Source: Vulcanimicrobiota bacterium (GTDB lineage: Bacteria; Vulcanimicrobiota; JAJTBE01). From it: a DNA stretch of 64,000 nucleotides. The translations under genes and the position numbers were made by a program. Positions 2,427 through 62,468 of the stretch are shown here, piece by piece; position 1 is the stretch's first letter; the number at the start of each line of letters is the position of its first letter. Location of the stretch: contig JAIORV010000162.1 of assembly GCA_021107945.1 (NCBI GenBank), forward strand, positions 7,999 to 71,998, read 5' to 3'. The notes below the pieces were generated by a model. That model did no database searches. It was not told where the DNA came from and worked only from the letters and a program-made list of their open reading frames with translations.

Positions 2427-5054
2427 CTATTTCAATTTTTTCTTCCATTCGTATATTTTATCCAGCGCCTCGCGTGGTGACATATCGTCCGGATCTATGG
2501 TATTCAACTCACCGGCCAGCGGATCTTGCATCATATCAAAAAATGTCAATTGATACGAAGGCTTTTTCTTTTCCTTGATAAGACCGGACCTGAAAGCGGC
2601 AAGATCCTCCTCGAATTCGTCAAGTATCTCCTTTGCCCTTCTCAGGACATCGCCGGGAAGACCTGCAAGTTTTGCAACATATATGCCGTAACTCTTGTCG
2701 GTGCCACCCGGTACTATGTGATGTAAAAAAATGATCTCCCTGTTCGTTTCTTTCACATCGACCCTGAAATTTGCCATTCCCTCCAAATTTCCGGCAAGCT
2801 CCGTCAATTCATGGAAATGTGTCGCAAAAAGCGTCCTTGCCTTTATATGTTTGTGAATATATTCAGATACCGACCATGCAATGCTCATGCCGTCATAAGT
2901 GCTCGTTCCCCTGCCTATCTCATCCAACAGAATCAAGCTTGTGCAGGATGCATTGTTTATTATGTTTGCAGTCTCGCTCATCTCAACAAGAAAAGTGGAT
3001 TTGCCCAGGTGAAGGTTGTCAGATGCACCCACTCTTGTGAAAACCCTGTCAATAATACCGATTTTTGCACTGTCCGCCGGCACAAAGGAACCCATTTGCG
3101 CCATTATTGCAATTAGTCCAATCTGGCGCAGGTATGTTGACTTTCCCGACATGTTGGGACCGGTAATGATGTGGAACCTTGATTTGCGATAATCCAGACC
3201 GCAGTCATTCGGCACAAAGCTTCCATCGAGCATCTTTTCCACAACGGCATGTCTTCCACCCACGATTTCAAGAATATTCTCCTTTACAACATCAGGCCTG
3301 CAATAATTCCCCTCACGCGCCACCATGGCAAGACTTCCCAGGCAGTCAAGATGTGCCACTATCCTGGATGCGACCTGTATGCGTCCGGCCTGTTGCAATA
3401 TATTATCCCTGATTTTCAGGAAGATATTGTATTCAAGATCGTTTATCTTCTCCTCCGCCCCCAGTACCTTTGATTCATATTCCTTCAACTCCGGGCTTAT
3501 AAAACGCTCTCCATTTGATACTGTCTGTTTCCGGATATAACCGTCAGGCACAAGGTGGAGATTGGGTCTTGTAACTTCGATGAAATAGCCGAATACATTG
3601 TTGAACTTGACTTTTAGAGATTTTATGCCGGTTTTTTCCTTCTCTCTCTTCTCAAGCCCGGCAATCCAACTTTTTGCATTGCTTCGAATTCCCCTCAATT
3701 CGTCCAACTCGGAATTGTACCCGGCTTTAATTATATTTCCCTCTTTTAACGAGGCAGGCGGATCCTCAGATATGGACAACTCCACAAGGTCATGAATATC
3801 ATCAAGTGTGTCCAGGGAATCAATCAACATTTTCATTAGTGAAGATTTTACTTCCCTGCCATAACTTTTCAAAGTGGGAAGGTGGGAGAGAGAATTTCTC
3901 AAGGCGAGAAGATCGCGTGCGTTGGCGCTTGCATAAACTACTCTGGATGTGATTCTCTCCAGGTCATATATGAGTTTGAGGGCGTCAGTGATACCTGTAT
4001 GAAGCGTATAATCGTTGATAAGCTCTTCCACGGCATCAAGCCTGGCGTTGATTTTCGCCCGGTTGAGAAGAGGCCTTTCGAGCCATGAGCGAATCAGTCT
4101 GGCCCCCATAGCTGTTTTTGTATTATCAAGAACCCACAGGAGCGAACCTTTTTTCTTAAGCTCTATCAATGTGCGGGATAACTCCAGGTTTCGCCAGGTT
4201 GTGGAATCAAGAATCATAAATTCCGATACGTCATAGTATTCAATCTTGTGAAGCGAATGATGTTCCGTCTTCTGTGTGTCATTCAGGTAATTGATAAGTG
4301 CGGCGGCCGCCATTCCCGGTTCGGGGTGTTTTTCCCAATTAATTTCAAATTTATCAGTTTTAAAGGCGGATTTAAGAATCTCCCTGAATATCATCCCCTG
4401 TAAAGGCTCTTTGTTTGTATTCCAGGGCGTATTTGACTCGTTTAAATGCATCTTCAACTGATCAAGCCTGTGCAAGTTCTCATCAAGAATAACCTCGGAA
4501 GGCTTGACCCGGATTATTTCGTCAACAAGGCGGGAGTATTCCGATAAGGGGATTTTCGTTACCCTGAATTCCCCGGTTGATACATCCGTAATTGCAAGAC
4601 CGTAGTTGTTATCAGACGATACCAGCGACATCAGGTAATTATTCTCATCGGACTCCAATAGCTTGGGATCTGTCACAGTCCCTGATGTGATAACCCTTGT
4701 GACATCCCTGTGAACCAGTCCTTTTGCCTTTTTTGGATCCTCGAGCTGTTCACATACGGCCACCCTGACCCTATGTTTTATAAGTCCCCTGATGTAACCG
4801 CCGGCGCTGTGATGAGGCACGCCCGCCATCGCTATTCTCTCGCCGCCTCCTGCATCGCGTGAAGTCAGGGATATTTTGAGTAACTTCGCTCCCTTCTCGG
4901 CATCATCGCCATACATCTCGTAAAAATCACCACACCTGAAAAAAAGAATGCAATCAGGATGTTTGTCCTTGATTTTAAAGAACTGACGAAACATGGGAGT
5001 CGGCTTTTGGGGGCGACTTACTGTTTTGGGTTTTTCCTTTTGATTGCTCATCAT
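2427..5054 (-). CDS. mutS: DNA mismatch repair protein MutS
   Basis: 875 aa. N-terminal mismatch-binding start TPMFRQFF, Walker A GPNMSGKSTYLRQ, Walker B LILLDEIGRGTSTYDG, and a helix-turn-helix C-terminus. Confidence 0.95.
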   Translation of the reverse strand: MMSNQKEKPKTVSRPQKPTPMFRQFFKIKDKHPDCILFFRCGDFYEMYGDDAEKGAKLLKISLTSRDAGGGERIAMAGVPHHSAGGYIRGLIKHRVRVAVCEQLEDPKKAKGLVHRDVTRVITSGTVTDPKLLESDENNYLMSLVSSDNNYGLAITDVSTGEFRVTKIPLSEYSRLVDEIIRVKPSEVILDENLHRLDQLKMHLNESNTPWNTNKEPLQGMIFREILKSAFKTDKFEINWEKHPEPGMAAAALINYLNDTQKTEHHSLHKIEYYDVSEFMILDSTTWRNLELSRTLIELKKKGSLLWVLDNTKTAMGARLIRSWLERPLLNRAKINARLDAVEELINDYTLHTGITDALKLIYDLERITSRVVYASANARDLLALRNSLSHLPTLKSYGREVKSSLMKMLIDSLDTLDDIHDLVELSISEDPPASLKEGNIIKAGYNSELDELRGIRSNAKSWIAGLEKREKEKTGIKSLKVKFNNVFGYFIEVTRPNLHLVPDGYIRKQTVSNGERFISPELKEYESKVLGAEEKINDLEYNIFLKIRDNILQQAGRIQVASRIVAHLDCLGSLAMVAREGNYCRPDVVKENILEIVGGRHAVVEKMLDGSFVPNDCGLDYRKSRFHIITGPNMSGKSTYLRQIGLIAIMAQMGSFVPADSAKIGIIDRVFTRVGASDNLHLGKSTFLVEMSETANIINNASCTSLILLDEIGRGTSTYDGMSIAWSVSEYIHKHIKARTLFATHFHELTELAGNLEGMANFRVDVKETNREIIFLHHIVPGGTDKSYGIYVAKLAGLPGDVLRRAKEILDEFEEDLAAFRSGLIKEKKKPSYQLTFFDMMQDPLAGELNTIDPDDMSPREALDKIYEWKKKLK

Positions 5055-9916: not shown

Positions 9917-10133
9917 CTGCTATTTCCAATTTTAACAAACAATGAAAAAACCACTTGTTCGATAGTTTGTTTAATATGGGAATAAGAAAAACAGGAATCA
10001 TTACATGATATTACTCCCCCGGATTTATCCGGGGGATATAAGGAATCCCACTCCCCGTGTATCTCACAAAAACTTTTAGACGCTTCAGCGTCTTCCCGAT
10101 AAGGAATTCCTAACTATAGAGAAAAGAGAAAAT

Positions 10134-11291
10134 ATGATCCATAAATCAACTAAACCTGAAACTAATCAAAACGATATAGCCAGGGTATCCGCCGGAACGG
10201 AGCGTGTCCTGGGATTGAGCAATATAAGAATGGAAGATCCTCCAACTTGCGCATATTTTATGATTGGTGAGAACTGCAAGGGCACATGTTTTTTCTGCGC
10301 CAGAAGAAGTGAAAGAGAAAATGAAAACATTGAAACATCACCCAATAATTCAACTTCAAAAAAGCGGGGATTCCTGTCCAGAGTGACCTGGAAACCATAC
10401 AATATTCATACGGTTCTGGAGAAAAACGCAGAGCAATTTGAAAATGGATCGATCAGGAGAACTTGCTTCCAGGTTGTCCGGGACACCGAAGCTTACAGAC
10501 AGACCCTTGAGGCGGTTAAGATGCTCAAGAAAAAATGTGATATTCCCGTATGTGTATCAATAAACGGAATATCCCCGGAGCAGTATGGCGAATTGTATGA
10601 GGCCGGGGTTGAGAGGATAGCGTTTTCGTTTGACGCCGCAACACCGGAATTATATGAGAAAATAAAAGGGAAGTCGTGGGATGAGGAATGGGAAATCTAC
10701 CTTGAAATAAACAGGCGCTTCCCCGGCAGGACGGTAATTCACCTGATAGTGGGACTAGGCGAGACCGAGAAGCAGATGGTAGGGGCGATTGAAACATTCT
10801 ATAGGCACAACTCGGAAGTCTCCCTGTTTGCATTCACGCCGATTCCCGGAACGCCGCTGTCAGGAAGAAAACAGCCTTCTCTTTCGACATACAGAAAGAT
10901 ACAAACCGCTCTTTATATGATAAGAACCGGCATGTGGCAATGTAGGAGGGACGTCCCCGTCCCGATAAACGGAGAATGGAAAACGGATGCCGGATGCCAG
11001 AGCTCACTTCCCGTTTCCCACTTCCCATTTCCCGCCTCCAGCATGTGGGACGTCCCCGTCCCGATGAAATGTAAAAATGAACTATATAAATTCGAAAACG
11101 ATAAAATTATATTTAATCGTGATAAAAGAGACTTCTTCATACAAAATATTCCACAGACCGCATTCCGCACATACGGATGCCCCGACTGTAACAGGCCTCT
11201 ATATAACGAAAGACCGGGGCAGGTTCCATATAATTTCCCCCGGGAGCTTACGGAGGAGGAGCGTATTTCTGCGATTGAGTTGATTTTTTGA
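10134..11291 (+). CDS. Radical SAM protein. The C-terminal third contains two in-frame copies of a dispersed palindromic repeat.
   Basis: CxxxCxxC cluster ENCKGTCFFCARR and a TIM-barrel-like core with GLGET. The translation reads through repeat copies at 10941-10970 and 11044-11069 (CRRDVPVPIN / MWDVPVPMKC). Confidence 0.65.
   Translation: MIHKSTKPETNQNDIARVSAGTERVLGLSNIRMEDPPTCAYFMIGENCKGTCFFCARRSERENENIETSPNNSTSKKRGFLSRVTWKPYNIHTVLEKNAEQFENGSIRRTCFQVVRDTEAYRQTLEAVKMLKKKCDIPVCVSINGISPEQYGELYEAGVERIAFSFDAATPELYEKIKGKSWDEEWEIYLEINRRFPGRTVIHLIVGLGETEKQMVGAIETFYRHNSEVSLFAFTPIPGTPLSGRKQPSLSTYRKIQTALYMIRTGMWQCRRDVPVPINGEWKTDAGCQSSLPVSHFPFPASSMWDVPVPMKCKNELYKFENDKIIFNRDKRDFFIQNIPQTAFRTYGCPDCNRPLYNERPGQVPYNFPRELTEEERISAIELIF
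10941..10970. repeat. REP-like palindromic element TGTAGGAGGGACGTCCCCGTCCCGATAAA, copy 1 (inside a CDS)
   Basis: The same 29-mer occurs at 33942-33970. The GGGACGTCCC core is a perfect palindrome. Confidence 0.8.
11044..11069. repeat. REP-like palindromic element, copy 2 (TGTGGGACGTCCCCGTCCCGATGAAA), inside a CDS
   Basis: Near-identical to copy 1, lying 99 bp (33 codons) downstream in the same frame. Confidence 0.75.
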
Positions 11292-11558
11292 TTATTCAAT
11301 GCAGAGGACGCAGAGAACGCGAAGGTTTTATATGATTTTCATATTATTTACCACAGAGTTCACAGAGGGCATATAGGTTAGAAGGAATCTATTTTATGAA
11401 TGCCACAAAATCCTCATCTTTGGCATCATAAAAGACCTTGATTTTATATTCAAATAGATTTCTAAATGTTGTACCTCCTGAGTATTGCAAGGAATTCTCC
11501 AATACTATAAGCTTTTTCTATAAAACATTGGTTCCTTTTTCATCAGATGATATCTACT

Positions 11559-11777: not shown

Positions 11778-14576
11778 TCACCTTGCCCCGTGCTTGCGGA
11801 GAAGGTTAACGATGTTGGTATTGCCATATTTTGCTGAATATTTCAGAGGCGTCATACCGTATTTGTCCTTCGCATTTACATCTGCGCCTTTGGATATAAG
11901 TAATTTGGCAGTTTCGGTTTTACCTTCAATTGCCGCCCAGTGCATAGGTGTCCATCCACGATTACTCTTTGCATTTATATCTGCGCCATTGGATATGAGG
12001 AGTTTGGCAGTGTCGGTTTTACCTTCAATTGCCGCCGTGTGCAGGGGTGTCAGTTCATAATTGTCCTTCGCATTTATATCTGCGCCCATGAATATAAGTA
12101 ATTTGGCAGTTTCGGTTTTACCTTCAATTGCCGCATGGTGCAAGGGTGTTCTACCATGTGAATCCTTCACTTTTATATTTGCTCTTTTTAGAAACAAAAA
12201 AGAAGCGAATATGACTGTTATCAATATAATAAAAGATAATGCCAGCAGACCCCAAGGGGACCTCTTACTACTCACCTTTTTGTCTAAATTTGTTCCCCCA
12301 AGAAGATTGACGATGTCGGCATAGCCCCCGGATTTTGCAAATTGTAGGGGCGTCTTTCCTGAATTATCCTTCGAGTCTATATCCGCTCCTTTAGATATTA
12401 AAAATCTGGCAGTGTCGGTTTTACCTTCAATTGCCGCCGTGTGCAGGGGTGTCAGTTCATAATTGTCCTTCGCATTTATATCTGCGCCCATGAATATAAG
12501 TAATTTGGCAGTTTCGGTTTTACCTTCAATTGCCGCATGGTGCAAGGGTGTTCTACCATGTGAATCCTTCACTTTTATATTTGCTCTTTTTAGAAACAAA
12601 AAAGAAGCGAATATGACTGTTATCAATATAATAAAAGATAATGCCAGCAGACCCCAAGGGGACCTCTTACTACTCACCTTTTTGTCTAAATTTGTTCCCC
12701 CAAGAAGATTGACGATGTCGGCATAGCCCCCGGATTTTGCAAATTGTAGGGGCGTCTTTCCTGAATTATCCTTCGAGTCTATATCCGCTCCTTTAGATAT
12801 TAAAAATCTGGCAGTGTCTGTTTTACCTTCTATTGCCGCTCGGTGCAGGGGTGTCCCGCCGTCATTGTCCTTCTCATTTATATTTGCGCCTTTTGATATG
12901 AGGAGCTTTGCGGTGTCGGTTTCACCATTCCTTGCCGCTTGGTGCAGGGATGTCCATCCGCTATTGTCCTTCTCATTAACATTCGCGCCCTTGGATATAA
13001 GGAGCTTGGTAATGTCGGTATTACCTTCTATCGCCGCACAGTACAGGGGTGTCTCATCGTTATTGTTCTTTGTATTCATATTTGCGCCTTTGGATATAAG
13101 GAGCTTGGCAGTGTCGGTTTTACCATAAAATGCCGCCTTATGCAGGGGTGTCTGGCCATAATTGTCCTTCGCATTTACATTTGCGCCATTCCCTATCAGG
13201 AATCTGGTGGTGAAGATTTTACCTTCAATTGCCGCATTGTGCAAGGATGTCCAACCCTTATTATCCTTCGCATTTACATCCGCCCCCTTGAATACTAAAA
13301 GACTGACTATCCTGAAGGCATCGGAATAGCACGACCCTGCTGCAATATGAAGAGGTGGCACGCCGTAATCGTCCTTCGCATTTACATCCGCGCCCTGGTT
13401 GATATGTTCCTTGACTTTTGCCATATTACCATACTTCACCGCCTTAAAAAAATCATTATATCTACCAAATGGTTTCTTAGGAAAATGTGAGGGAGATTGG
13501 GGAGCAGGAACATGGGCATGGGCAGGAGCAGGAACAGATGTATGTGTAAGCGTAGGCGTAGGTGTAGGTGTAGGTGCAGGATACCTCACGCCACTTGTCG
13601 GGTAGCCTGAGGCAACAGCCCCAGGTGGTTTTGAAATATGAGTGGGTGCAGGTGTAGATACAGTTCCAGGATACCGCCCACCACCTCCATCAAGTATCTC
13701 AATGATCATATCAATCGAACCGGGACGGTTGACGCTGGATATATCCACCATGGACATGATGAGATCGTCAAGAAATTCGGGAACATTATTATTTAAATTT
13801 CTCACCGATTCGAATGTAAAAAGAGGACGGGACGGGTCTTCGGGATTGAGACCGGTAAGGAGATAGTGAATCAGAACCCCCAGGGAAAAAATATCGTTCA
13901 GCGGGGAATCATTGCCACGGTACTGGTCAGGAGAAGCATAGCCCTGCGTTCCCAACATCGTGCCTTTTTGCAGGGGCTTCAATATCTTGGCAATTCCAAA
14001 ATCAATAAGATAGAGCTTACTGTCTTTTATCATTGTATTTGAAGGCTTCAGATCACGGTAAATAACAGGGGGATTCTGAGAATGCAGGTAAGAGAATATG
14101 TCGAGGATTTGCCGGAAATATCCCATAACCTCGTCAAGGGGAAGCGGTGGAATGTTCTGCCTCAGATAGCATTCCAGATCCATGCCTTCGATGAATGTCA
14201 TCACAAGGTAATGTGATGTTTTTCCGCCGGAATCTTTTTTGGTGAAATAATCCGTTACCTTGGGAAGTCCTCCGTGATGGAGCTTCGCCAGCAGTTTTGC
14301 TTCTCTCAGGAACATCTCCTGAAATTTCTTCCCATCTGCATCCAGGTTATAGGTCGCCTGCATTTTTTTAACGGCTACGGTCTCTCCCAGGCGTGTGTCA
14401 ACGGCTCGATAGATACAACCCATGTTCCCTGACTTTAACATGCTTTCCACCTGATATCTGTCGTCCAGAAGCTCAACTTTCCGGGTGGCTGACGGCGACA
14501 TATTCGCCCCGCATTCGTTGCAATACTTCGCTGATGATTTTTGTTTTTTTCCGCAGACAGGGCAGAAACGATCCAT
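11778..14576 (-). CDS. Zinc-ribbon / Ser-Thr protein kinase / ankyrin-repeat protein, paralog A (two TM helices from an internal duplication)
   Basis: N-terminal CPVCGKK...YCNECG zinc ribbon. Kinase motifs VAVKKM, YRDLKPSN, DFGIAK and GYASPDQ. PTPTPT linker, then about 17 ANK repeats (TPLHxAAxxGxxDxxKLLIxxGADVNAKD). A TM helix WGLLALSFIILITVIFASFLFL occurs twice. An ATG at 14576 matches the paralog starts (MDRFC); the track start at 14591 is a TTG. Confidence 0.85.
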   Translation of the reverse strand: MDRFCPVCGKKQKSSAKYCNECGANMSPSATRKVELLDDRYQVESMLKSGNMGCIYRAVDTRLGETVAVKKMQATYNLDADGKKFQEMFLREAKLLAKLHHGGLPKVTDYFTKKDSGGKTSHYLVMTFIEGMDLECYLRQNIPPLPLDEVMGYFRQILDIFSYLHSQNPPVIYRDLKPSNTMIKDSKLYLIDFGIAKILKPLQKGTMLGTQGYASPDQYRGNDSPLNDIFSLGVLIHYLLTGLNPEDPSRPLFTFESVRNLNNNVPEFLDDLIMSMVDISSVNRPGSIDMIIEILDGGGGRYPGTVSTPAPTHISKPPGAVASGYPTSGVRYPAPTPTPTPTLTHTSVPAPAHAHVPAPQSPSHFPKKPFGRYNDFFKAVKYGNMAKVKEHINQGADVNAKDDYGVPPLHIAAGSCYSDAFRIVSLLVFKGADVNAKDNKGWTSLHNAAIEGKIFTTRFLIGNGANVNAKDNYGQTPLHKAAFYGKTDTAKLLISKGANMNTKNNNDETPLYCAAIEGNTDITKLLISKGANVNEKDNSGWTSLHQAARNGETDTAKLLISKGANINEKDNDGGTPLHRAAIEGKTDTARFLISKGADIDSKDNSGKTPLQFAKSGGYADIVNLLGGTNLDKKVSSKRSPWGLLALSFIILITVIFASFLFLKRANIKVKDSHGRTPLHHAAIEGKTETAKLLIFMGADINAKDNYELTPLHTAAIEGKTDTARFLISKGADIDSKDNSGKTPLQFAKSGGYADIVNLLGGTNLDKKVSSKRSPWGLLALSFIILITVIFASFLFLKRANIKVKDSHGRTPLHHAAIEGKTETAKLLIFMGADINAKDNYELTPLHTAAIEGKTDTAKLLISNGADINAKSNRGWTPMHWAAIEGKTETAKLLISKGADVNAKDKYGMTPLKYSAKYGNTNIVNLLRKHGAR
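12035..12838. repeat. Perfect 402-bp direct tandem duplication inside kinase paralog A
   Basis: Plus-strand track ORFs 12061-12324 and 12463-12726 have identical translations. The minus-strand protein repeats a 134-aa block (ANK, TM helix, 2 ANK) twice without any change. Confidence 0.85.
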
Positions 14577-14652
14577 TAAGTGTTCCCCCAAAAGAAAATT
14601 ATGGTACTATTCGGACATCTCTTGTAGTAAAAAACTATTCAATCCCGATTTC
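14577..14652 (-). promoter_or_regulatory. Conserved about 80-bp leader/promoter block shared by the three kinase paralogs (copy A)
   Basis: CCAAAAGAAAATTATGGTACTATTCGGACATCTCTTGTAGTAAAAAACTATTCAATCCCGATTTCAT aligns with 18168-18250 and 20716-20800. On the coding strand it contains TTGAATAG and CATAAT boxes and a GGGGGA RBS. Confidence 0.45.
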
Positions 14653-14712
14653 ATGCCGTTTCCCGGCGGGTCGGGAGACCCGCCGCTACCCAAATAGGGG
14701 ACGGGTCTGAAT
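14653..14712. ncRNA. About 60-nt conserved hairpin element (candidate small RNA or MITE), copy 1
   Basis: ATGCCGTTTCC-CGGCGGGTC-GGGA-GACCCGCCG-CTACCCAAATAGGGG. The reverse complement of 26281-26340 carries the same element with two compensatory base-pair changes in the 9-bp stem. Confidence 0.4.
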
Positions 14713-15194
14713 GATTATCCTTTTTATGCCCATTTTTATGACATTAATTATACTTCTGTCACTATAACATTACAGTCTTGATTATATCGTTCTATTCCAA
14801 CGGAATATGCCCTTCCTTATTAAAAAGATCCCTTGCAATCTGTAATTCTGAGTGGACTACGAAAGAATTGCTCTAATCCGATGACTTGCTCAAAGACGTG
14901 ATTATATTGATGCTTGTGATTTACAAAGCGAAGAATCCCTCGAATGTTGGCTTGAGATATCACGCAACATGTGTGATGACAGCGTGGACGACTCTCTTGC
15001 GGGAGATCATTCGCTGTGAAAGACATCGGAGGTAAGTAATACCATTTTGGATTCAAATTTGCCGCATGGGCAGAAAGCCGGTAGCTTCGGCGTCCCCGCC
15101 GGAGAAAGTATTGCGCCGAGGGCGGTTGTCCTCGGTTACACGGACTGAATGTATGCAAAATCTTTCAACGATCAGATTTTCAGGATCTGTTTTA

Positions 15195-18167
15195 TTATTC
15201 TCTCGCCCCTTGTTTGCGGAGAAGATTGACTGTGTCGGTATGTCCATTTAGTAAAGCTTCGCGCAGGGGTGTCCTGTCGTTATTGTTTTTCATGTTTACT
15301 TTTGCTCCTTTGGATATAAGGAGCAAAACGATCTCTGTATGATCATCCTGTGCCGCAAAGTGCAGGGGTGTATCTCCGTTTTTGTCCTTTGCTCTTACAT
15401 CTCCTCTCTTGGATATAAGGAGTTTGGCGGTGTCTGTATGGCCAAAAAATGCCGTGTTATGCAGGGGTGTATCTCCGTTATTGTCCTTTGCGCTTACATC
15501 TCCCCCATTGGATATAATGAGCCTGGCAGTGTCGGTATGACCAAAAAATGCCGTTTTGTGCAGGGGCGTATTTCCGTTGTTGTCCTTTGCGCTGACATCT
15601 CCTCCGCTGGATATAATGAGCTTGGCAGTGTCGGTATGTCCATCCGATGCCGCACTGTGCAGGGGTGTCTTTCCATCATTGTCCTTCGCATTCACATTTG
15701 TGCCTTTGGAGATGAGAAGCTCAACGAAGCCGGTGTGCCCTTTTGATGAAGCGTAATGAAGGGTTGTTCTTCCGTCATTATCCTTTGCATTCACATCTGC
15801 ACCTTTGGATATAAGGAGTTTAGCAGTGTCGGTTTTACCTCCAATTGCTGCTTGGTGTAAGGGTGTTCTACCAAGTGAATCCCTGGCATTTATATTTGTT
15901 TTTTTCAATTTAAGATATGGCAAAAGGGCAAAAGCAGTGAATATTAATGCTATAACGGCAAAACAAATTATCACACCCCGGAAAACCCCCTTTTTTCTTA
16001 TTGTCCCACCTTCAGCTGCCCCCTCGGATATGAGGAGTTTGGCGGTGTTGCTATATCCATTATTCATTGCGTAGTATATGGGTGTCTTGCCTAAATTATC
16101 CTTTACATTTACATCTGCACCTTTGGATAAAAGGAGTTTGACAGTGTCGCTTTTATCTTCACTTGCTGCAAAGTGCAGAGGAGTCCGTCCATCGTTGTCT
16201 TTAGCGCCTATATCCGCTTCCTTGGATAAAAGGAGTTTGGCAGTATCGGTATGGCCAAGAAATACCGTTTTATGCAGGGGCGTATCTCCGTTATTGTCCC
16301 TTGCATTTGTATCTGATCCCTTGGCTATAAGGAGCCTGGCGGTATAGACGTGACCATAAAGTGCCGCATAATGCAGAGGTGTTCGTTCATTATTATCTTG
16401 CACATTTACTCTTGCTCCTTTGGACATAAGGAGCCTGGAGGCGTGTGTGTGACCATAAAGTGCAGCAAAGTGCAGAGGTGTCCGTTCACTATTGTCTTTC
16501 ACATCTATTATTGCTTCTTTGGATATAAGGAGCTGGGCAGTGTCGGTCCTGCCTTCAATTGCCGCTCTGTGCAGGGGTGTCTTTCCATCATGGTCCTCCA
16601 TATTCACATCTGCGCCTTTGGATATAAGGAATCTGGAAATGTCGATGCGGTCTTCTATTGCCACTTTGTGCAGGGGAGTACGTCCCAAATTATCTTTAGT
16701 ATTTACATTTGCGCCACTTTGCACAAGGAGTTCAACGATGTCTATATCGCCGTTGAATGCGGCATAGTGCAGGGGTGCTAAATGGTCATTATTCTTCGTA
16801 TTCACTTTTGCCCCCATGGATATAAGGAGTTTGGCAATGCTGAGATGGCTTTCTATTGCCGCTTTGTGTAAGGGTGTACGTCCAAAATTGTCCTTAACAT
16901 TTACATTTGCACCATTGGAAATAAGGAGTTTGGCGGTGTCGGTATGGCCTTCATACATCGCCCAGTGCAAGGGTGTACATCCGTCATTATCCCGCGCATT
17001 TACATTGGCCCCCTGTTTTATATATTCTTTGACCTGGGCAGTCTTGTGAACCATCGCCGCTGAAAAAAAATCATCATACTTATCAAATTTCTTCCTGGGA
17101 TAACCGGGAGGAGGCGAGGGATCCGGAACAGGTGGTGTGGGTTCAGGTTCAGGTGCAGGTGCAGGCTCAGGAGTGGACGTTGGTGTAGCTTCAGGTGTTG
17201 GCGCAGGCTCTTGGGCGGGAGTTGGTGTAGGTTCAGATATTGGCACGGAATCATTTGTTGGGTCCTGCTGTTTGCTTCCATTCAGTATCTCAATGATTTT
17301 ATCAACCGACTCGGGACGGTTGGCGCAGGTTAAATCCACCATGGACATAATAAGATTATCGAGAAATTCGGGAACATTTTCATTGAAGTCTCTCACCTGT
17401 TCGAATGTAAAAAGAGGGCGGGATGGGTCTTCCGGATCAAGCCCGGTAAGGAGAAAATGTATCAAACCTCCCAGGGAGAAAATGTCGTTTTGGGTGCTAT
17501 CATTGCCCCGCAACTGATCGGGAGAAGCATAACCCGGAGTACCTAACATCGTACCTTTTTCTTGGGGTTTAAATATTTTGGCAATTCCAAAATCGACAAA
17601 ATAGAGCTTGCCGTCATTGATTATGATATTTGAAGGCTTTAGATCACGGTAAATAACAGGAGGGTTTTGAGAATGCAGGTAAGATAATATTTCGAGAACT
17701 TGTCGGAAATACCCCATAACTTCATCAATAGGAAGCGGTGGAAGATTTTGTTCCAGATAGCACCCCAGATTCATTCCTTCGATGAATGTCATAACAAGGT
17801 AATGTGATGTTTTTCCGTCGGGATCCTTTTGGGAGAAAAAATTCGTTACTTTGGGAAGGCCTTCATGATGGAGTTTTATCAAAAGTTTTGCTTCCCTCAG
17901 GAACATCTCTTGAAATTTCATCCCGCCTGTGCCCCGACTAAAAGTCACCTGCATTTTCTTGACGGCTACAGTCTCTCCCAGGCGTGTATCAACAGCTCGA
18001 TAGACACAACCCATATTGCCCGACTTTACAATGCATTCAACCTTATATCGGTTGTCCAGAAGCTCAACTTCCCCGGCAGCTTCCGGTGATATATTCGCTC
18101 CGCATTCGTTGCAATATTTCGCCGATGCTTCTTGCTTTTTTCCGCAGACAGTGCAGAAACGATGCAT
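15195..18167 (-). CDS. Zinc-ribbon / Ser-Thr protein kinase / ankyrin-repeat protein, paralog B (one TM helix inside the ankyrin array)
   Basis: MHRFCTVCGKK...YCNECG. Same kinase motifs as paralog A. PEPTPAP linker. About 10 ANK repeats, the TM helix GVIICFAVIALIFTAFALLPYL, then about 7 more ANK repeats. Confidence 0.85.
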   Translation of the reverse strand: MHRFCTVCGKKQEASAKYCNECGANISPEAAGEVELLDNRYKVECIVKSGNMGCVYRAVDTRLGETVAVKKMQVTFSRGTGGMKFQEMFLREAKLLIKLHHEGLPKVTNFFSQKDPDGKTSHYLVMTFIEGMNLGCYLEQNLPPLPIDEVMGYFRQVLEILSYLHSQNPPVIYRDLKPSNIIINDGKLYFVDFGIAKIFKPQEKGTMLGTPGYASPDQLRGNDSTQNDIFSLGGLIHFLLTGLDPEDPSRPLFTFEQVRDFNENVPEFLDNLIMSMVDLTCANRPESVDKIIEILNGSKQQDPTNDSVPISEPTPTPAQEPAPTPEATPTSTPEPAPAPEPEPTPPVPDPSPPPGYPRKKFDKYDDFFSAAMVHKTAQVKEYIKQGANVNARDNDGCTPLHWAMYEGHTDTAKLLISNGANVNVKDNFGRTPLHKAAIESHLSIAKLLISMGAKVNTKNNDHLAPLHYAAFNGDIDIVELLVQSGANVNTKDNLGRTPLHKVAIEDRIDISRFLISKGADVNMEDHDGKTPLHRAAIEGRTDTAQLLISKEAIIDVKDNSERTPLHFAALYGHTHASRLLMSKGARVNVQDNNERTPLHYAALYGHVYTARLLIAKGSDTNARDNNGDTPLHKTVFLGHTDTAKLLLSKEADIGAKDNDGRTPLHFAASEDKSDTVKLLLSKGADVNVKDNLGKTPIYYAMNNGYSNTAKLLISEGAAEGGTIRKKGVFRGVIICFAVIALIFTAFALLPYLKLKKTNINARDSLGRTPLHQAAIGGKTDTAKLLISKGADVNAKDNDGRTTLHYASSKGHTGFVELLISKGTNVNAKDNDGKTPLHSAASDGHTDTAKLIISSGGDVSAKDNNGNTPLHKTAFFGHTDTARLIISNGGDVSAKDNNGDTPLHNTAFFGHTDTAKLLISKRGDVRAKDKNGDTPLHFAAQDDHTEIVLLLISKGAKVNMKNNNDRTPLREALLNGHTDTVNLLRKQGARE

Positions 18168-18417: not shown

Positions 18418-20715
18418 TCAATTTAACGATCCAGGACTTGGCTGAAATTTTTTCTCAGACACCAATCGCTTTACTCCGTTCTTATGAAGAAAGGAAGCTA
18501 TATGGGTATGCCCATTCGATGTAGCATATTGCCGGGGTGTCCAGCCCCTGACGTCTTCCGCATTTACATTTGCGCCTTTGGATACAAGGAGTTTGGCCGT
18601 GTCTTTATGTCCATCCGATGCCGCACCGTGCAGAGGTGTCCATCCATCATTGTCCTTCGCATTCACATTTGCCCCCCTGGATATCAGGAGCTCGATGATG
18701 TCTGTGTGTTCTTTGGATTCCGCCAGGTGCAGAGATACCCAGCCGTTATTTTCCTTCGCATTCACATTTGCTCCCCTGGATATAAGGAGCTTGATGACGT
18801 CGATATGTCCATATCTTGCGGCATAGTGCAGAGGTGTCCAGCCTCTGTTCTCCTTCGCATTCACATTTACACCCTTGGATATAAGGAGCCTGACGACGTC
18901 GATATGTCCATATCTTACCGCATAGTGTAGAAGTGTCCAGCCTTTATTATCCTTAACATTTATATCTGCTCCATTTGACATGAGAAATCTGACGATCTCG
19001 GTATTACCTTGATTTGACGCAAAATGAAGGGGTGTCCATCCGTCATTGTCCTTCGCATTTATATTTGCCCCCCTGGATATAAGGAGCTCGACGATATCGC
19101 TGTGTCCTTTGGATTCCGCCAGATGCAGAGGTGTCCAGTTGCTATTTTCCCTCGCATTCACATTTGCCCCCCTGGATATAAGGGACTTGACGACTTCGAT
19201 ATGTCCATATCTTGCCGCATAGTGCAGAGGTGTCCAGTTGCTGTTTTCCTTCGTATTCACATTTGCACTCTTGGATACAAGGAGCTTGACGATGTCGGCA
19301 TGTCCATATCTTGCGGCATAGTGCAGGGGTGTCCATCCGCTATTTTCCTTTGCGTTTACAAGTGCGTTTTTGGATGTGAGGAGTTTGACGATGTCGGTAT
19401 GGCCTTCTTTAGCCGCTCTATGCAGAAGTGTTCTTCCGTTATTATCCTTTGTGTTTACATACGCGCCCTCGGAGATGAGGAGCCTGACGATGTTTGTATG
19501 TCCATTGAATGTAGCATATTGCAGGGGTGTTACGTTTTTGCTGTCCTTTGCATTTACATCTGCCCCCTGGTTGATATATTCTTCAACTGTCATAATTCTA
19601 TCATTCTTAACCGCCTTGAAAAAATCATCATATCTATCGAACTGCCTTTTAATCAACTGATTCTTGGGAAAATATGAAGGGCCTGATGGGGCGGGATCAT
19701 ATGAAGAAGACAAAGCAGGTTTAGTTGCATTTGCAGGAGATTGCCTGTCACTTGTCAGGTGGCTTGGAGTATTAATCACCGGCGGTTTTGAAACAAGAGA
19801 AGATGCAGAATGCCGTCCTTCACTTCCATCGAGTATCTTAATGATCTGATCAATCGAACCGGGACGGTTGACATTGGACATTTCCACCATGGATAGGATG
19901 AGATTGTCGAGAAATTCGGGAATGTCCTTGTTGGAATTTCTTACCGGTTCGAATGTAAAAAGAGGACGGGATGAGTCTTCGGGATTGAGTCCGGAAAGAA
20001 GGTAATGAATCAGAACTCCAAGCGAATAAATATCGTTTTGCGGGGAATCATTGCCCCGGCATTGGTCAGGAGAAGCATAGCCCCGCGTTCCCCACATTGT
20101 GCCTTTTTGCAGGGGTTTCAATATTTTGGCAATTCCAAAATCAACAAGAAGGAGCCTGCCGTTATTAAACATGATATTTGAAGGCTTCAGATCGCGATAG
20201 ACAACGGGAGGGTTCTGAGAATGCAGGTAAGAAAATATGTCGAGAATCTGCCGGAAAAATCCTATAACTTCATCAAGAGGAAGCGGTGGAATGTTCTTCC
20301 TTAGATAGCATTCCAGATCCACGCCTTCGATGAATGTCATCACAAGGTAATGTGATGTTCTTCCGACGGGATCCTCTTTGGTGAAAAAATCTGTTACCTT
20401 GGGAAGTCCTCCGTGATGGAGCTTCGCCAATAGTTTTGCCTCTCTCAGAAACATTTCCTGAAATTTATTCCCGTCTGTGTCGAAATTATAAGTCGCCTGC
20501 ATTTTTTTGACGGCCACGGTCTCTCCTAGGCGTGTGTCAACGGCCCGATAGACACAGCCCATGTTCCCCGACTTTAATATTCTTTCCACCCTATATCGGT
20601 TGTCCAGAAGTTCAACTTGCCGGGTAATTCCCGGCGACATTTTCGCTCCGCATTGGTTGCAATATTTAGTTTTTGATTTTTGATTTCTTCCGCAGATAGT
20701 GCAGTAATGATCCAT
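18418..20715 (-). CDS. Zinc-ribbon / Ser-Thr protein kinase / ankyrin-repeat protein, paralog C (soluble, no TM helix)
   Basis: MDHYCTICGRN...YCNQCG. Kinase motifs conserved. S/P-rich linker followed by about 11 ANK repeats. Confidence 0.85.
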   Translation of the reverse strand: MDHYCTICGRNQKSKTKYCNQCGAKMSPGITRQVELLDNRYRVERILKSGNMGCVYRAVDTRLGETVAVKKMQATYNFDTDGNKFQEMFLREAKLLAKLHHGGLPKVTDFFTKEDPVGRTSHYLVMTFIEGVDLECYLRKNIPPLPLDEVIGFFRQILDIFSYLHSQNPPVVYRDLKPSNIMFNNGRLLLVDFGIAKILKPLQKGTMWGTRGYASPDQCRGNDSPQNDIYSLGVLIHYLLSGLNPEDSSRPLFTFEPVRNSNKDIPEFLDNLILSMVEMSNVNRPGSIDQIIKILDGSEGRHSASSLVSKPPVINTPSHLTSDRQSPANATKPALSSSYDPAPSGPSYFPKNQLIKRQFDRYDDFFKAVKNDRIMTVEEYINQGADVNAKDSKNVTPLQYATFNGHTNIVRLLISEGAYVNTKDNNGRTLLHRAAKEGHTDIVKLLTSKNALVNAKENSGWTPLHYAARYGHADIVKLLVSKSANVNTKENSNWTPLHYAARYGHIEVVKSLISRGANVNARENSNWTPLHLAESKGHSDIVELLISRGANINAKDNDGWTPLHFASNQGNTEIVRFLMSNGADINVKDNKGWTLLHYAVRYGHIDVVRLLISKGVNVNAKENRGWTPLHYAARYGHIDVIKLLISRGANVNAKENNGWVSLHLAESKEHTDIIELLISRGANVNAKDNDGWTPLHGAASDGHKDTAKLLVSKGANVNAEDVRGWTPRQYATSNGHTHIASFLHKNGVKRLVSEKKFQPSPGSLN

Positions 20716-20800: not shown

Positions 20801-20918
20801 GGACCGGCCAAAAGACCGGTCTGGAATTAAATCTCGGTGTGGTTGGAATGATTATCCTTTTTTTCAAACTCTGCGTCCTCCGCATCCTCTGCGGTGAATA
20901 CTCAAAGTCATCAAAAAA

Positions 20919-25971: not shown

Positions 25972-26280
25972 TTTTCATTAACCCCCTTGATAAAATAAAT
26001 TATTAAAGGCTCCTCAAAACAAGACCAGGGATAGGAGCCAGCAAAGTAAATAAAATTAAAATCATTGAAATATCACCTTGTATATTTCAATTTCTGCTTC
26101 CAAAATCCTCCGGATCATGGTTCGTGATAAAAAAAAGATTGTACCCATTAAGACTAACCGCAGCAAGAGAGGCTCCCAGCCTCGATTCTAATGGCAGTCC
26201 GCCTCGATATTCGTGGTAAGATGCTACTCCCATAAAGGAGGTTTTAATGTTTTAAAGATTGATATTTAAAGTGTAATTAT

Positions 26281-26340
26281 TCAGACCGCCCCACTATTTG
26301 GGTAGAGGCTGGTCTCCCGACCAGCCTGGAAACGGCATAA
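26281..26340. ncRNA. About 60-nt conserved hairpin element, copy 2 (reverse orientation relative to copy 1)
   Basis: rc = TTATGCCGTTTCC-AGGCTGGTC-GGGA-GACCAGCCT-CTACCCAAATAGTGGGG. The stem is preserved by compensatory changes relative to 14653-14712. Confidence 0.4.
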
Positions 26341-26366
26341 AATAGGGGTTGGGAAACCCCTACAGA
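26340..26366. repeat. REP-like element in reverse orientation (rc = TCTGTAGGGGTTTCCCAACCCCTATTT)
   Basis: Matches TGTAGGAGGGGTTTCCTAACCCCGATAAA at 37618-37649. Confidence 0.6.
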
Positions 26367-31959: not shown

Positions 31960-33939
31960 ATGAGTAAGTTAAAAAAAGAATTCAAATTGATTGACGTCTT
32001 TGCCATTTCAACCGGGGCGATGATCAGCTCAGGCTTATTTGTGCTTCCCGGCATGGCGTATTCCGTAGCAGGGCCTGCAATGATATTGGCATATCTTGTA
32101 GCGGGATTAATGTATATCCCTGCAATGCTCAGTTATGCCGAGCTTTCAACGGCAATGCCGCGCTCCGGAGGCAGCTACTTTTTCGTGGATAGAAGCATGG
32201 GACCGATCCCCGGAACAATTGGCGGGATGTCTGAGTGGTTATCCCTTATTTTGAAAAGCTCATTTGCACTAATTGGAATTGGCGCATTTGCCACAATATT
32301 CTTTCCCGGAATGGCGGAGATACACATTAAGCTTATTGCAACAGCTTTTTGTGTGTTTTTTGTGATACTCAATATCCATGGCGTAAAAGAGGCAGGCAAG
32401 TTACAAGTTGCCCTTGTTATAGGACTTATCGTTATTCTTGTCCTGTATGTAGTTGAGGGATTCTCTAAGCTGGACCCAATGAATTTCTCTCCGTTCATGC
32501 CCCAGGGCAAACTCTCAATCCTTTCAGCCGCAGGACTGGTGTATATTTCATTTGCAGGACTTACCAAAGTTGTGAATATGGGTGAGGAGATAAAAAACCC
32601 GGGACGAAATATTCCTCTGGGCATGGCATTGGCATTTATAACGGTTATTATAATATATGTATTAGTTACCATTGTAACTGTGGGAATTGTGCCCGGCAGC
32701 GAGTTGTCAGGTAATCTTGCCCCCCTTGCTCTGGGAGGCAAAAAAATGATGGGAACTTTCGGAGAGATCCTCATCACGGTTGCCGCCCTGTTTGCATTTG
32801 CAACAACAGCAAACGCAGGCATTATGGCCGCTTCAAGGACGCCGGTCTCTATGAGCAGGGACGGCCATTTACCCACGTTTTTACACAAAATCCATCCAAA
32901 ATATCACACTCCCCGTAATGCAATACTTCTTACCGGGACAATCATGATAGCATTTATACTTCTACTGGATATCCGGACATTTGTAAAAACAGCTTCAGTC
33001 GTCATGCTCATTCTTCTTACAATGATATGTATTGCTGTTATCGTGATGAGAGAGAGTAAACTCTATAATTATAAGCCCATATTTCGCTCACCCTTTTATC
33101 CGTATGTTCAGATAATAGGAATCCTCGCGTATTCTTACCTTCTTCTCACAATCGGTGTGAAGCCGCTGGTAATGACGGCAATTCTTTTATTCGCAGGCTT
33201 TATCTGGTACTGGATTTATGCCAGGATCCGGATAAACAGGGAATCCGCCCTTGTACACGTGATAGAAAGGTTCATGGATACAAAGTATGACAGAGACCTG
33301 GCTCAGGAAAAGCTCGCCACGGAATTGAAAGAAATCGTCAAGGAGCGAGACGAGGTGGTAGAAGATCTGCTTGACAGGCTTGTGACAAATGCAACGGCCA
33401 TTGAGCTTGAAGATGGTATTACGAGAGATGAATTCTTCAAACTTGTATCGGAGCAATTCGCCGATAGATACCAGATTGAAGCTCGGGAGTTATTTGAACA
33501 TCTGCAAAAAAGAGAAGCGGAGTCAACATCCGAGATTTTACCGGGACTTGCCATTCCTCATATTATTATCGACGGGAAATGTGAATTTTCATTGCTAATG
33601 GCTCGAAGTAAGGAAGGAATTGATTTCTCACCGGGAATGAAACCCGCACATGCCATATTTGTCTTTATCGGGACAAAGGAAATGAGGTCCCTGTATCTCA
33701 GATCCCTTGTTGCGATAACTGAAATTGCTCAGCAAAAGGATTTCGAAGAATTCTGGAGGAACGCAAGAGATGAGGAGGAGCTTCGTAATATTATATTAAT
33801 GGGAGAGAGAAAGAGGGTCCACATGATAAACTGCCTGCATTGCCCCGAGGACGCTCTTTTTGAAGAAAAGAAATACTGCCCCATATACTATGATGAAGAA
33901 GGAAAGGTCAATAGAGGGAAAGGGGAAACGGGAAGTTGA
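31960..33939 (+). CDS. APC-superfamily amino acid permease with a roughly 220-aa cytoplasmic C-terminal domain
   Basis: 12 predicted TM helices (GAMISSGLFVLPG...). The soluble C-terminal region is acidic. Confidence 0.8.
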   Translation: MSKLKKEFKLIDVFAISTGAMISSGLFVLPGMAYSVAGPAMILAYLVAGLMYIPAMLSYAELSTAMPRSGGSYFFVDRSMGPIPGTIGGMSEWLSLILKSSFALIGIGAFATIFFPGMAEIHIKLIATAFCVFFVILNIHGVKEAGKLQVALVIGLIVILVLYVVEGFSKLDPMNFSPFMPQGKLSILSAAGLVYISFAGLTKVVNMGEEIKNPGRNIPLGMALAFITVIIIYVLVTIVTVGIVPGSELSGNLAPLALGGKKMMGTFGEILITVAALFAFATTANAGIMAASRTPVSMSRDGHLPTFLHKIHPKYHTPRNAILLTGTIMIAFILLLDIRTFVKTASVVMLILLTMICIAVIVMRESKLYNYKPIFRSPFYPYVQIIGILAYSYLLLTIGVKPLVMTAILLFAGFIWYWIYARIRINRESALVHVIERFMDTKYDRDLAQEKLATELKEIVKERDEVVEDLLDRLVTNATAIELEDGITRDEFFKLVSEQFADRYQIEARELFEHLQKREAESTSEILPGLAIPHIIIDGKCEFSLLMARSKEGIDFSPGMKPAHAIFVFIGTKEMRSLYLRSLVAITEIAQQKDFEEFWRNARDEEELRNIILMGERKRVHMINCLHCPEDALFEEKKYCPIYYDEEGKVNRGKGETGS

Positions 33940-33941
33940 TT

Positions 33942-34040
33942 TGTAGGAGGGACGTCCCCGTCCCGATAAATGGAAAATGGAAAATGGATGTTGGAAAATG
34001 GATGACGGATAACGGCTCTCGTTTCCCACGTCCCGGCTAA
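33942..34040. repeat. REP-like element, copy 3, plus an adjacent GGAAAATGGA microsatellite, in a convergent intergenic region
   Basis: TGTAGGAGGGACGTCCCCGTCCCGATAAA is identical to 10941-10969. It is followed by TGGAAAATGGAAAATGGATG... and GTTTCCCACGTCCCGG, which resembles 10996-11030. Confidence 0.8.
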
Positions 34041-36034: not shown

Positions 36035-36257
36035 GGCTTGAATCAATTCTCCTTTTTATATCTATTTATATCTATTTGTAGCAAAGACCACAGAGCCCCC
36101 ATTTTATTCACATTCTTTGCGTTAAAACCAACCCTTATTCATCCTCCGGGCTCCGATTCCACTGCAGATCGTAAAGAATACAGGTTGTTGAGTTGGTCCG
36201 ACATCTAAACCCGGGGCGAGGGATCTTATATAATTTCCATTCTCTATATATAATTTC

Positions 36258-37577: not shown

Positions 37578-37591
37578 TGATTTGTATTTAT

Positions 37592-37680
37592 TCACCGCAA
37601 AGACCACAAAGAATTTTTGTAGGAGGGGTTTCCTAACCCCGATAAACCCTTTGCGTCCTTTGCTTCTTTGCGGTTAATTT
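37592..37680. repeat. Composite hairpin element: triple-heptamer arms CCGCAAAG-ACCACAAAG / CTTTGCGTC-CTTTGCTTC-TTTGCGG around an internal REP-like core
   Basis: The arms are reverse complements of each other. The core TGTAGGAGGGGTTTCCTAACCCCGATAAA belongs to the same family as the 10941 and 33942 elements. Confidence 0.7.
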
Positions 37681-37763
37681 TAATCATCCAAATATTTACC
37701 CACATAATATAGAGAAGAGCTGAATAAATTCTCTGCGGACTCCGCGATCTCCGCGGTTAATAA

Positions 37764-41305: not shown

Positions 41306-41489
41306 ATTAAAGGTACCGCCATATCAGAATGGTATTTTTATATATTTGACACATATTATACAGAAAAGTTCCTGTTTATGCAAATTAATTTCCGGATATT
41401 TATTCATCGCAAAGACCACAAAGATTTTAATCTTACCACGAAGCCAAGAAGGACACGAAGAAATGTATGGGACTCCATTCTTTGTTCTC

Positions 41490-56711: not shown

Positions 56712-56762
56712 TATGGGTGTTTTACTAATTACTACAAAGAGCGCTGAGGACGCAGAGTTTTC

Positions 56763-60172: not shown

Positions 60173-60245
60173 GCGGAAATAGCTCAGATGGTAGAGCATT
60201 AGCTTCCCAAGCTGAGGGTCGCGGGTTCGAATCCCGTTTTCCGCT
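60173..60245 (+). tRNA. tRNA-Gly (anticodon CCC)
   Basis: Cloverleaf GCGGAAA/TTTCCGC acceptor stem, anticodon loop TTCCCAA, T-loop TTCGAAT. Confidence 0.85.
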
Positions 60246-60271
60246 TTTTATTCTGAGTGCAGAAATAGCAG

Positions 60272-60347
60272 GGCGACGTGGCCGAGTGGCTAAGGCAGCG
60301 GTCTGCAAAACCGTTTATCACCAGTTCGAATCTGGTCGTCGCCTCCA
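60272..60347 (+). tRNA. tRNA-Cys (anticodon GCA), with CCA encoded
   Basis: Acceptor GGCGACG/CGTCGCC, anticodon stem-loop GCGGT-CTGCAAA-ACCGT, T-arm ACCAG-TTCGAAT-CTGGT, 3' TCCA. Confidence 0.8.
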
Positions 60348-60353
60348 TACTAA

Positions 60354-60427
<74 letters not shown>

Positions 60428-62321: not shown

Positions 62322-62394
62322 GCTTTCGCCAGTTGTCTTTAGTCCAACTGAATCCACAATCGCTCTCCTTTCGATTTTTTTAAACGCAGAGATC

Positions 62395-62468
62395 GCGGAG
62401 TTCGCAGAGGATAACCGGAGAAAAAACATTGATACCTCTGTGTTCTCTGTGTCCTCTGTGGTAAAAAA
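62395..62468. repeat. Composite hairpin element: CGCAGAG-ATCGCGGAG-TTCGCAGAGG ... CCTCTGTG-TTCTCTGTG-TCCTCTGTGG-TAA
   Basis: Same triple-heptamer inverted-arm architecture as 39043-39140 and 37592-37680. Confidence 0.7.

Follow-up and report, generated by a model that had tools for sequence, protein, structure and literature searches.

A GTAG-headed REP cluster probably inserted in frame into the linker of a LipS2-type lipoyl synthase gene

Two copies of a dispersed palindromic repeat lie inside an open reading frame (10134-11291, forward strand) of the 64,000-nt stretch of bacterial DNA analysed here, hereafter called the window, and they raise the question of whether such repeats have become part of a protein, or whether the true gene ends before them and the frame downstream is open by accident. 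A preliminary description of the locus had favoured an in-frame insertion of palindromes into a real gene. The conserved C-terminus encoded beyond the repeats, the variable length of the linker in which they lie and the intergenic position of the other copies all agree with that reading.

The repeat at 10941 had been described as identical to an intergenic copy at 33942. An exact 29-mer (TGTAGGAGGGACGTCCCCGTCCCGATAAA) is indeed found twice in the window, at 10941-10969 and at 33942-33970, with no matches in 100 shuffles, and the second of these copies is located between genes, in a gap of 97 nt that separates the stop codon of a permease/EIIA gene (33939, forward strand) from that of a ribonucleotide reductase gene (34037, reverse strand). 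The 19-nt core of the repeat (GGGACGTCCCCGTCCCGAT) is present at 10948, 11047 and 33949 of the window, against an expectation of 0.02. A second copy had also been claimed 99 bp downstream within the same ORF: the two genic cores are spaced by exactly 99 nt (33 codons) on the same strand, and hence head-to-tail, but the downstream copy lacks the full GTAGGA head.

The layout of a repeat unit is T-GTAG-GA-(6-bp stem)-TCCC-(stem)-GAT-AAA. The first genic unit, REP-A (10941..10969, forward strand), reads T-GTAG-GA-GGGACG-TCCC-CGTCCC-GAT-AAA and is the one repeated at 33942; 25 nt of it (GTAGGAGGGACGTCCCCGTCCCGAT) are also found at 10047 and 5888 of L050, at 14499 of L051, and in L010 and L024. The second, REP-B (11043..11068, forward strand; core at 11047-11065), is head-shortened, with the structure ATGT-GGGACG-TCCC-CGTCCC-GAT-GAA; it reads ATGTGGGACG..., and its GTGG overlaps the stem. 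A variant of REP-B (YATGTGGGACGTCCCCGTCCCGAT), likewise preceded by a TCC-rich arm, is present in the intergenic sequence L024 at 3664-3697. Both genic units have the 6-bp stem GGGACG/CGTCCC and the loop TCCC, and their predicted folding energies are -10.4 and -12.4 kcal/mol. A further unit of the window, at 37618..37646 (forward strand; repeat family D11), is intergenic and carries a compensated stem (TGTAGGA-GGGGTT-TCCT-AACCCC-GATAAA).

The ORF that holds the genic pair (10134..11291, forward strand, 385 aa) is, by its similarity to the family, a LipS2-type lipoyl synthase with a predicted catalytic function. It matches the NCBIfam model NF053743 (LipS2) with 294.6 bits, above the cutoff of 270, in two stretches that the insert separates, of which the best covers residues 17-268, and the Pfam Radical_SAM match spans residues 44-220. 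A database search yielded 4003 homologues, and the best 120 of these mostly cover 93-100% of the query. The Cx3Cx2C motif expected of the family (C48, C52, C55) and three auxiliary-cluster cysteines (C111, C349, C352) are present, and all six are invariant in an alignment of 114 sequences; their equivalents in the Thermococcus kodakarensis enzyme are C39/C43/C46 and C85/C276/C279. The activity of that enzyme depends on each of C85, C276 and C279, which have been proposed as ligands of an auxiliary [4Fe-4S] cluster (PMC9585515), and by analogy the CxxC formed by C349 and C352 is the proposed counterpart here. The protein thus resembles LipS2 of the TK2248 type in its score above the NCBIfam cutoff, in Cx3Cx2C and in the three extra conserved cysteines, and differs from it in a 45-aa loop encoded by the REPs and in a second variable segment at residues 58-78.

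As had been claimed, the ORF spans both copies (...CRRDVPVPINGEWK...MWDVPVPMKCK...) and then continues into a protein-like C-terminal segment (...YGCPDCNRPLYNERPG...). Downstream of the repeats lies the conserved GCPDCNRPLYNERPG motif (11175..11219, forward strand), which contains the CxxC and whose columns do not vary in alignments of 20 and 114 sequences. No part of the family is better conserved than this segment, which is the same in 113 homologues. Every homologue can be aligned over residues 315-385, where 13 positions are invariant (T346, G348, C349, C352, N353, R354, P355, Y357, N358, E359, P361, N367 and L372), and all 40 invariant residues of the family are kept in the insert-bearing protein, on both sides of the insert. 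The suggestion that the gene truly ends near 10930 and that the downstream frame is fortuitous has in its favour only the repetitive nature of 10941-11071, and it fails on the residues shared by all homologues, among them the required CxxC; we give it next to no credence. Nor do the homologues end at the equivalent of about residue 265, as that alternative would have it: the 113 that were aligned all extend into, and carry, the C-terminal segment. Since that segment and its CxxC are invariant, the alignments show that the LipS2 gene reads through both repeats and runs in frame into its conserved C-terminus, and because a predicted cluster-binding motif lies downstream of the insert, the reading frame must be kept for the enzyme to work.

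The extent of the inserted DNA follows from the length of the linker between M262 and F320, which is 57 aa here against 10-14 aa in 101 of the 114 family members, an excess of about 45 aa. On this basis the inserted REP cluster measures 135 nt, or 45 codons, and occupies 10941..11075 (forward strand, boundaries approximate; CRRDVPVPINGEWKTDAGCQSSLPVSHFPFPASSMWDVPVPMKCK). Its G+C content is 57%, compared to 44% in the rest of the gene, and its GC3 is 67% compared to 47%. One of its three forward frames is open, and this is the gene's own. Read-through of the repeats predicts the peptides DVPVPINGEWK and TDAGCQSSLPVSHFPFPASSMWDVPVPMK, and the insert brings in three cysteines (C270, C288 and C313), which precede the CxxC by about 35 to 80 residues. 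In an AlphaFold2 model based on the 114-sequence alignment (mean pLDDT 86.7, pTM 0.86), residues 271-310 have a pLDDT of 47-68 and form a low-confidence loop, placed between helix 250-265 and the strands (318-327) that open the C-terminal subdomain; the nearest solved folds are the radical-SAM barrels of HydE and BioB, on which the rest of the model superposes.

The closest relatives (47-56% identical, among the best 120 of the 4003 homologues) also have expanded linkers there, of 38-65 aa and of unrelated sequence, and no REP was found in the linker DNA of the relatives P0007, P0015 and P0002. The peptides GELKGDAG of P0007 and CRNEVPG of P0015 were likened to the insert peptide, a likeness which is coincidental, as the DNA there contains no REP. 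No close orthologue free of the insert was found in the databases searched, the nearest among the best 120 of 4003 homologues being 55% identical. When the 50-aa insert peptide was compared to 5.8 billion proteins, a single match (P0121) and no other in-frame host protein was obtained; P0121, an 80-aa ORF considered as a second host protein, proved to be a spurious ORF laid over an intergenic copy of the same MAG. The alignments show that the LipS2 linker in which the extra sequence lies varies naturally in length.

The two hairpin units are separated by a spacer of 7-nt periodic arrays (10970..11040, forward strand), in which a GGA-rich arm (CGGAGAA TGGAAAA CGGATGC CGGATGC) is followed by an approximately complementary TCC-rich arm (CTTCCCG TTTCCCA CTTCCCA TTTCCCG CCTCCAG). 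TRF detected period-7 arrays at 10984-10998 and 11005-11033, and the arms pair with each other in the minimum-free-energy fold. Arms of the same types flank intergenic copies at 33916-34036 of the window and in L024, L010 and L050. The cluster of the window (33916..34036, forward strand) lies between convergent genes and consists of a GGGAAAG-type arm, REP-A at 33942-33970, a (TGGAAAA)n arm and the complement of the latter, its first 24 nt overlapping the end of the permease gene. The intergenic L024 (from the related metagenome Ga0255407) contains REP-A, a GGA arm, a TCC arm and then a REP-B headed by YATGTGGGACG. As the order of parts is the same there, the genic cluster is a copy of a recurring composite and not a peculiarity of this gene.

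An 8-nt direct repeat (GCATGTGG), with its left copy at 10930..10937 and its right copy at 11041-11048 (forward strand), 111 nt or 37 codons apart, may be a junction microhomology, a target duplication, a partial tandem duplication or a chance pair; part of it, ATGTGG, belongs to the element in L024. With regard to RNA structure, the whole 161-nt insert region folds no better than its shuffles (z = -1.0) and neither does the intergenic cluster (z = -0.8), so that a large conserved RNA structure was rejected and RNA folding support is limited to the small hairpins. A search of Rfam returned no match at the region, its sole matches being three tRNAs elsewhere in the window, and no terminator-like or promoter-like site is present within the insert region.

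The hairpins were traced in JGI metagenomes by a scan with TGTAGGAGGGNNNTCCNNNNCCCGATAAA, in which the flanks and part of the loop were fixed and the inner stem was left free. The scan yielded 37 loci, on contigs of 35-60% G+C, with 11 distinct variants. Among these variants pairing is kept in 98.5% of the stem cells, and compensatory double changes are found at all three of the unconstrained stem pairs (AU/GC, UA/CG and CG/GC/UA). The covariation score was reached by none of 500 shuffles, and the signal was gone when the 3' partner was shifted by one to three columns. These data show that the repeat family exists and, as judged from the covariation of the stem across metagenomic copies, that its hairpin is under selection. 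A scan of a genome collection with the 19-nt core gave at least 7 single chance matches, in unrelated and mostly G+C-rich genomes.

REPs are defined by a short (20-40 nt), imperfect, G+C-rich palindrome with an unpaired GT(A/G)G head on its 5' side (PMC3733652, PMC2817692), and the Pseudomonas/Xanthomonas class is recognised by a GA dinucleotide after the head together with a conserved tail of 3 nt (PMC2817692; GTAG-1 and GTAG-2 of PMC3733652). In the present family the stem of REP-A, like that of every copy from the metagenomes and from the same MAG, has TGTAGGA before it; the palindrome has a 6-bp stem and a 4-nt loop, and its pairing is kept by compensatory changes. The stem variants GGGGTC/GACCCC and GGGGTT/AACCCC contain no CGTC, which is confined to the stem of one variant. 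Judged by these features, the element belongs to the GTAG-tagged REP superfamily. For comparison, the RAYT-associated REPs reported by Nunvar et al. 2010 include TGTAGGAGCGGATTCATCCGCGAT of P. entomophila and GTGGGAGGGGGCTTGCCCCCGAT of P. fluorescens SBW25 (PMC2817692). The likeness to GTAG-1 and GTAG-2 REPs covers the GT(A/G)G head and its GTGG variant, the GA dinucleotide, a short G+C-rich stem with compensated variants, a loop of 2-4 nt, the conserved GAT tail, the occurrence in clusters, and the location of most of the copies found here between convergent or unidirectional genes. The differences are a host MAG labelled Candidatus Eremiobacteraeota and not a proteobacterium, units arranged head-to-tail and not head-to-head, array spacers of 7 nt, and no cognate RAYT seen.

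Two other classes of element were considered and rejected. A REPIN does not describe the cluster, the genic units being direct and head-to-tail, as are those of an array in L051. Neither does a MITE: the cluster ends (TGTAGGAGGG... and ...CCCGATGAAA) are direct and not inverted, and the only repeat seen there is the direct 8-nt GCATGTGG, part of which belongs to the element. A true MITE that contains the motif exists in Ga0067045 and is a different element.

The distribution of the family in the same organism was followed over approximately 88 kb of the MAG, made up of the window, the 4.3 kb adjoining its start (L051) and, from a second contig of the same sample, 20 kb (L050). Eleven units were found at seven loci: the LipS2 pair, 33943 and 37619 of the window, 10047, 5888 and 1442 of L050, and 14350-14510 of L051. 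Six of the seven are intergenic, typically between convergent gene ends, and the LipS2 pair is the exception. At the L051 locus four units follow one another head-to-tail with a period of 62 nt, and this array includes hybrid stems (e.g. GGGACG...CATCCC), which suggest exchange between copies. Head-to-tail REP dimers are rare in most genomes (PMC3733652); in this MAG, unlike those, they are common. Over all loci examined (approximately 60 copies), the LipS2 pair alone lies deep within a long ORF whose product was identified, after 287 and 321 codons of a 403-codon open frame; where other long open frames meet a copy, they do so at their very beginning, in the first few codons, a 223-codon case in L038 being left out of this comparison.

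A RAYT-type transposase has been proposed for the spread of GTAG REPs (PMC2817692, PMC3733652). Probes of IS200 TnpA and the E. coli RAYT (approximate query sequences) revealed no RAYT or other Y1 transposase in the window, in L050 or in L051, and Pfam scans of ten window ORFs, including the neighbours of the other GTAG hairpins, detected no transposase. The only Y1 transposase in 458 kb of sequence is located in L016 (PF01797, 52.9 bits); it was rejected as the cognate RAYT, since its organism is a different one and the REPs on either side of it are of another type. As the window, L050 and L051 hold no such gene, the mechanism of mobilisation is one that we infer: the family has presumably been spread by a HUH tyrosine transposase of the RAYT type, with single-stranded hairpins as its substrate, or else by recombination or slippage between copies.

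The explanation that we consider likely, with good though not full confidence, is that a GTAG-headed REP cluster has been inserted into the LipS2 linker and is read through as an extra loop. A cluster of two head-to-tail hairpin units and a self-complementary spacer of 7-nt repeats would have landed inside the gene, in the linker that leads from the last helix of the radical-SAM barrel to the small C-terminal subdomain with the auxiliary-cluster CxxC. Since its length (135 nt) is divisible by three and the frame of the gene is open across it, read-through would persist with about 45 residues added, and these would be carried as a disordered surface loop. The insert would thus be translated and tolerated as a neutral passenger, and it may have survived because frame-breaking insertions would destroy the enzyme.

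It could be argued instead that a recent insertion has inactivated LipS2 and that the frame is open by chance, as in an incipient pseudogene. For a forward insertion, a length that is a multiple of three together with one open frame would be expected by chance in about 1 of 9 cases, too many to be neglected; REP-A still matches other copies at 100% identity, as a recent event would allow; and no LipS1 gene adjoins LipS2 within the window, unlike in L047, where a radical-SAM gene follows the LipS2 homologue. LipS1 and LipS2 are not always neighbours, however, as stated in the T. kodakarensis paper (PMC9585515), and the retention of 40 of 40 invariant residues on both sides, as well as the placement of the insert by AlphaFold2 in a loop outside the barrel, speak against inactivation. 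We regard a pseudogene as unlikely, on the grounds that the relatives tolerate long linkers at this very site and that the invariant residues are intact. An assembly artefact, in which repeat-induced mis-assembly has put a REP cluster into the gene, might be suspected of any multi-copy element, at which short-read assemblies break, and one Logan contig (L052) does end approximately 30 nt upstream of the LipS2 start codon. Yet two contigs, the longest of 89,738 nt, carry the 385-aa protein in identical form, the source contig (85,996 nt; ENA ERZ26872897) is recorded in two samples, and both flanks form one gene in one frame, which a chimeric join would not restore; mis-assembly is therefore very improbable.

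Two further ideas give the insert a larger part than that of a passenger. The cluster may have been co-opted, either as an RNA pause or RNase site between barrel and tail or as a protein loop with three cysteines. A role as RNA elements has been attributed to REPs (PMC3733652), the hairpins of -10.4 and -12.4 kcal/mol inside a coding region are stable, and C270, C288 and C313 precede the CxxC at the distances given above. The case is a single instance without conservation across species, however, the linkers of the relatives hold unrelated sequence, and the insert has neither an Rfam match nor a terminator-like site, so that we find co-option improbable, though less so than mis-assembly. Slightly less doubtful, and still a long shot, is a broader conjecture in which the LipS2 linker is a recurrent landing site where REP DNA feeds the 38-65 aa expansions of the clade, or in which the hairpins have been co-opted as a translation pause; if the linker were such a landing site, the locus would represent a protein segment freshly born from a selfish hairpin repeat.

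The palindromic elements (RPEs) of Rickettsia are the classic case of in-frame intragenic palindromes, and the locus had been likened to them. The principle, palindromic repeats in frame within functional ORFs, is indeed the same; the sequence class is not. Intragenic RPE-4 and RPE-6 of R. conorii are CGTC-tagged and RPE-1 is a longer palindrome (PMC3733652), whereas the repeats described here have a GTAG tag, two direct-repeat units and an unrelated host; membership in the RPE families was rejected on their described tags, GTAG versus CGTC.

A closer precedent was provided by Di Nocera et al. 2013, who found REPs of the GTAG and CGTC types within genes whose protein products are known; dimers or groups account for over half of these intragenic inserts (PMC3733652). 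Such dimers and clusters, found in Opitutus terrae, Thauera sp. MZ1T and others, encode 20-30 aa and up to 43-82 aa, and they were proposed to be neutral because of their location in linkers or loops (PMC3733652). Intragenic in-frame REP clusters are thus already documented, and the present locus, likewise an in-frame cluster inside a gene for a known protein, is a further example. The earlier cases are enriched in replication and repair genes, whereas the host here is a radical-SAM sulfur-insertion enzyme; genes for radical SAM enzymes, lipoyl synthase and biotin synthase are absent from the text files among the supplementary material of that study (PMC3733652).

What we know of REPs or of LipS2 is left unchanged by this locus. 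Its new particulars are an uncultured, non-proteobacterial host, the radical-SAM LipS2 gene, the head-to-tail units and the heptamer-array spacers. The metagenomic copies place the Pseudomonas-style GTAG-GA...GAT architecture widely among metagenomes, on contigs of 35-60% G+C. For annotators the locus is a warning that repeats of this kind can be genuinely coding. It offers a clean, well-delimited REP cluster that is probably read as protein, with an essential motif downstream for which the frame must hold, and it would add an uncultured lineage outside the proteobacteria, and a radical-SAM enzyme, to the known settings of intragenic GTAG REPs.

Within the lipoyl-synthase gene LipS2, residues ~58-78 (window 10305-10370), directly after the Cx3Cx2C motif, form a second length-variable, low-confidence segment, with a mean pLDDT of 53-61 and a length that exceeds that seen in most homologues. 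Outside the coding sequence, the motif GCTTCAGCGTCTTCCCGATA precedes the LipS2 start codon by 35 nt (window 10080-10100), and on a different MAG contig it recurs 8 nt ahead of an FtsJ-like gene (L050 10222-10245). One possible explanation is that it is a 5' element common to both genes; alternatively, it may be another repeat.

Repetition was also observed in three tandem paralogous genes on the minus strand of the window. The Pfam matches of the first (11778-14591) and the third (18418-20715), taken jointly, are to families of Ser/Thr kinases and ankyrin repeats; no Pfam match is on record for the second (15195-18167), which has 99-nt repeats in common with the other two. An internal duplication in the first paralogue, 93% identical and 402 nt apart, repeats a transmembrane-like segment. 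Three adjacent tRNA genes are located at 60173-60427 of the window.

A second dispersed repeat family, which is intergenic and built from units with a 9-nt period (CACAGAGNN, CGCAGAGNN, CGCAAAGNN, plus the complement of each), was found in the window at 11300-11378, 20866-20906, 36054-36095, 37570-37611, 37640-37675, 37728-37763, 41382-41423, 56720-56760 and 62377-62468. Two inverted arrays of these units bracket the GTAG-headed hairpin repeat (REP) at 37619 (window 37570-37675).

The REP motif of the LipS2 cluster is also carried, there with the stem GGGGTC/GACCCC, by a MITE of ~125 nt with terminal inverted repeats TATACTACTCCTTAAAAG...CTTAAGTATGAGTATA in metagenome Ga0067045 (loci L011-L045). 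This MITE was present in more than 30 contigs; L011 and L035 hold tandem copies of it, and in L038 it is flanked by a 17-nt direct repeat. One copy lies ~330 nt downstream of a RAYT-like Y1 transposase (PF01797, 52.9 bits) encoded on the minus strand of L016 (522-1076), a locus from another organism; the REPs flanking this transposase are of a different type (GTAGATCAGACCTTTAGGTCTG).

The heptamer arrays beside REP clusters contain the ends of two genes: a permease/EIIA gene (31960-33939), which ends inside such an array at window 33916-33939, and an AcrB-like gene on L051, which ends inside another at L051 14310-14330. In both, the repeat appears to supply the last codons and the stop codon (…GGGAAGTTGA and …GATAACGGATAA, respectively).

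Further GTAG-headed hairpins, in which the stems are longer or different and the TCCC loop is unchanged (e.g., GGTAGCGGCGGGTCtcccGACCCGCCG), were identified in the window at 14689(-), 26302(+) and 26363(-). They are housed in a 108-nt inverted repeat (14640-14747 and 26244-26351), 80% complementary between the two loci. These observations suggest that several REP classes exist side by side in the MAG genome. On the contig from which the window comes, just outside the window start, four REP units form a head-to-tail array with a 62-nt period (L051 14350-14510). In some of these the stem is hybrid or mismatched (GGGACG..CATCCC, GGAACG..CGTCCC), suggesting exchange among stem variants of the REP.
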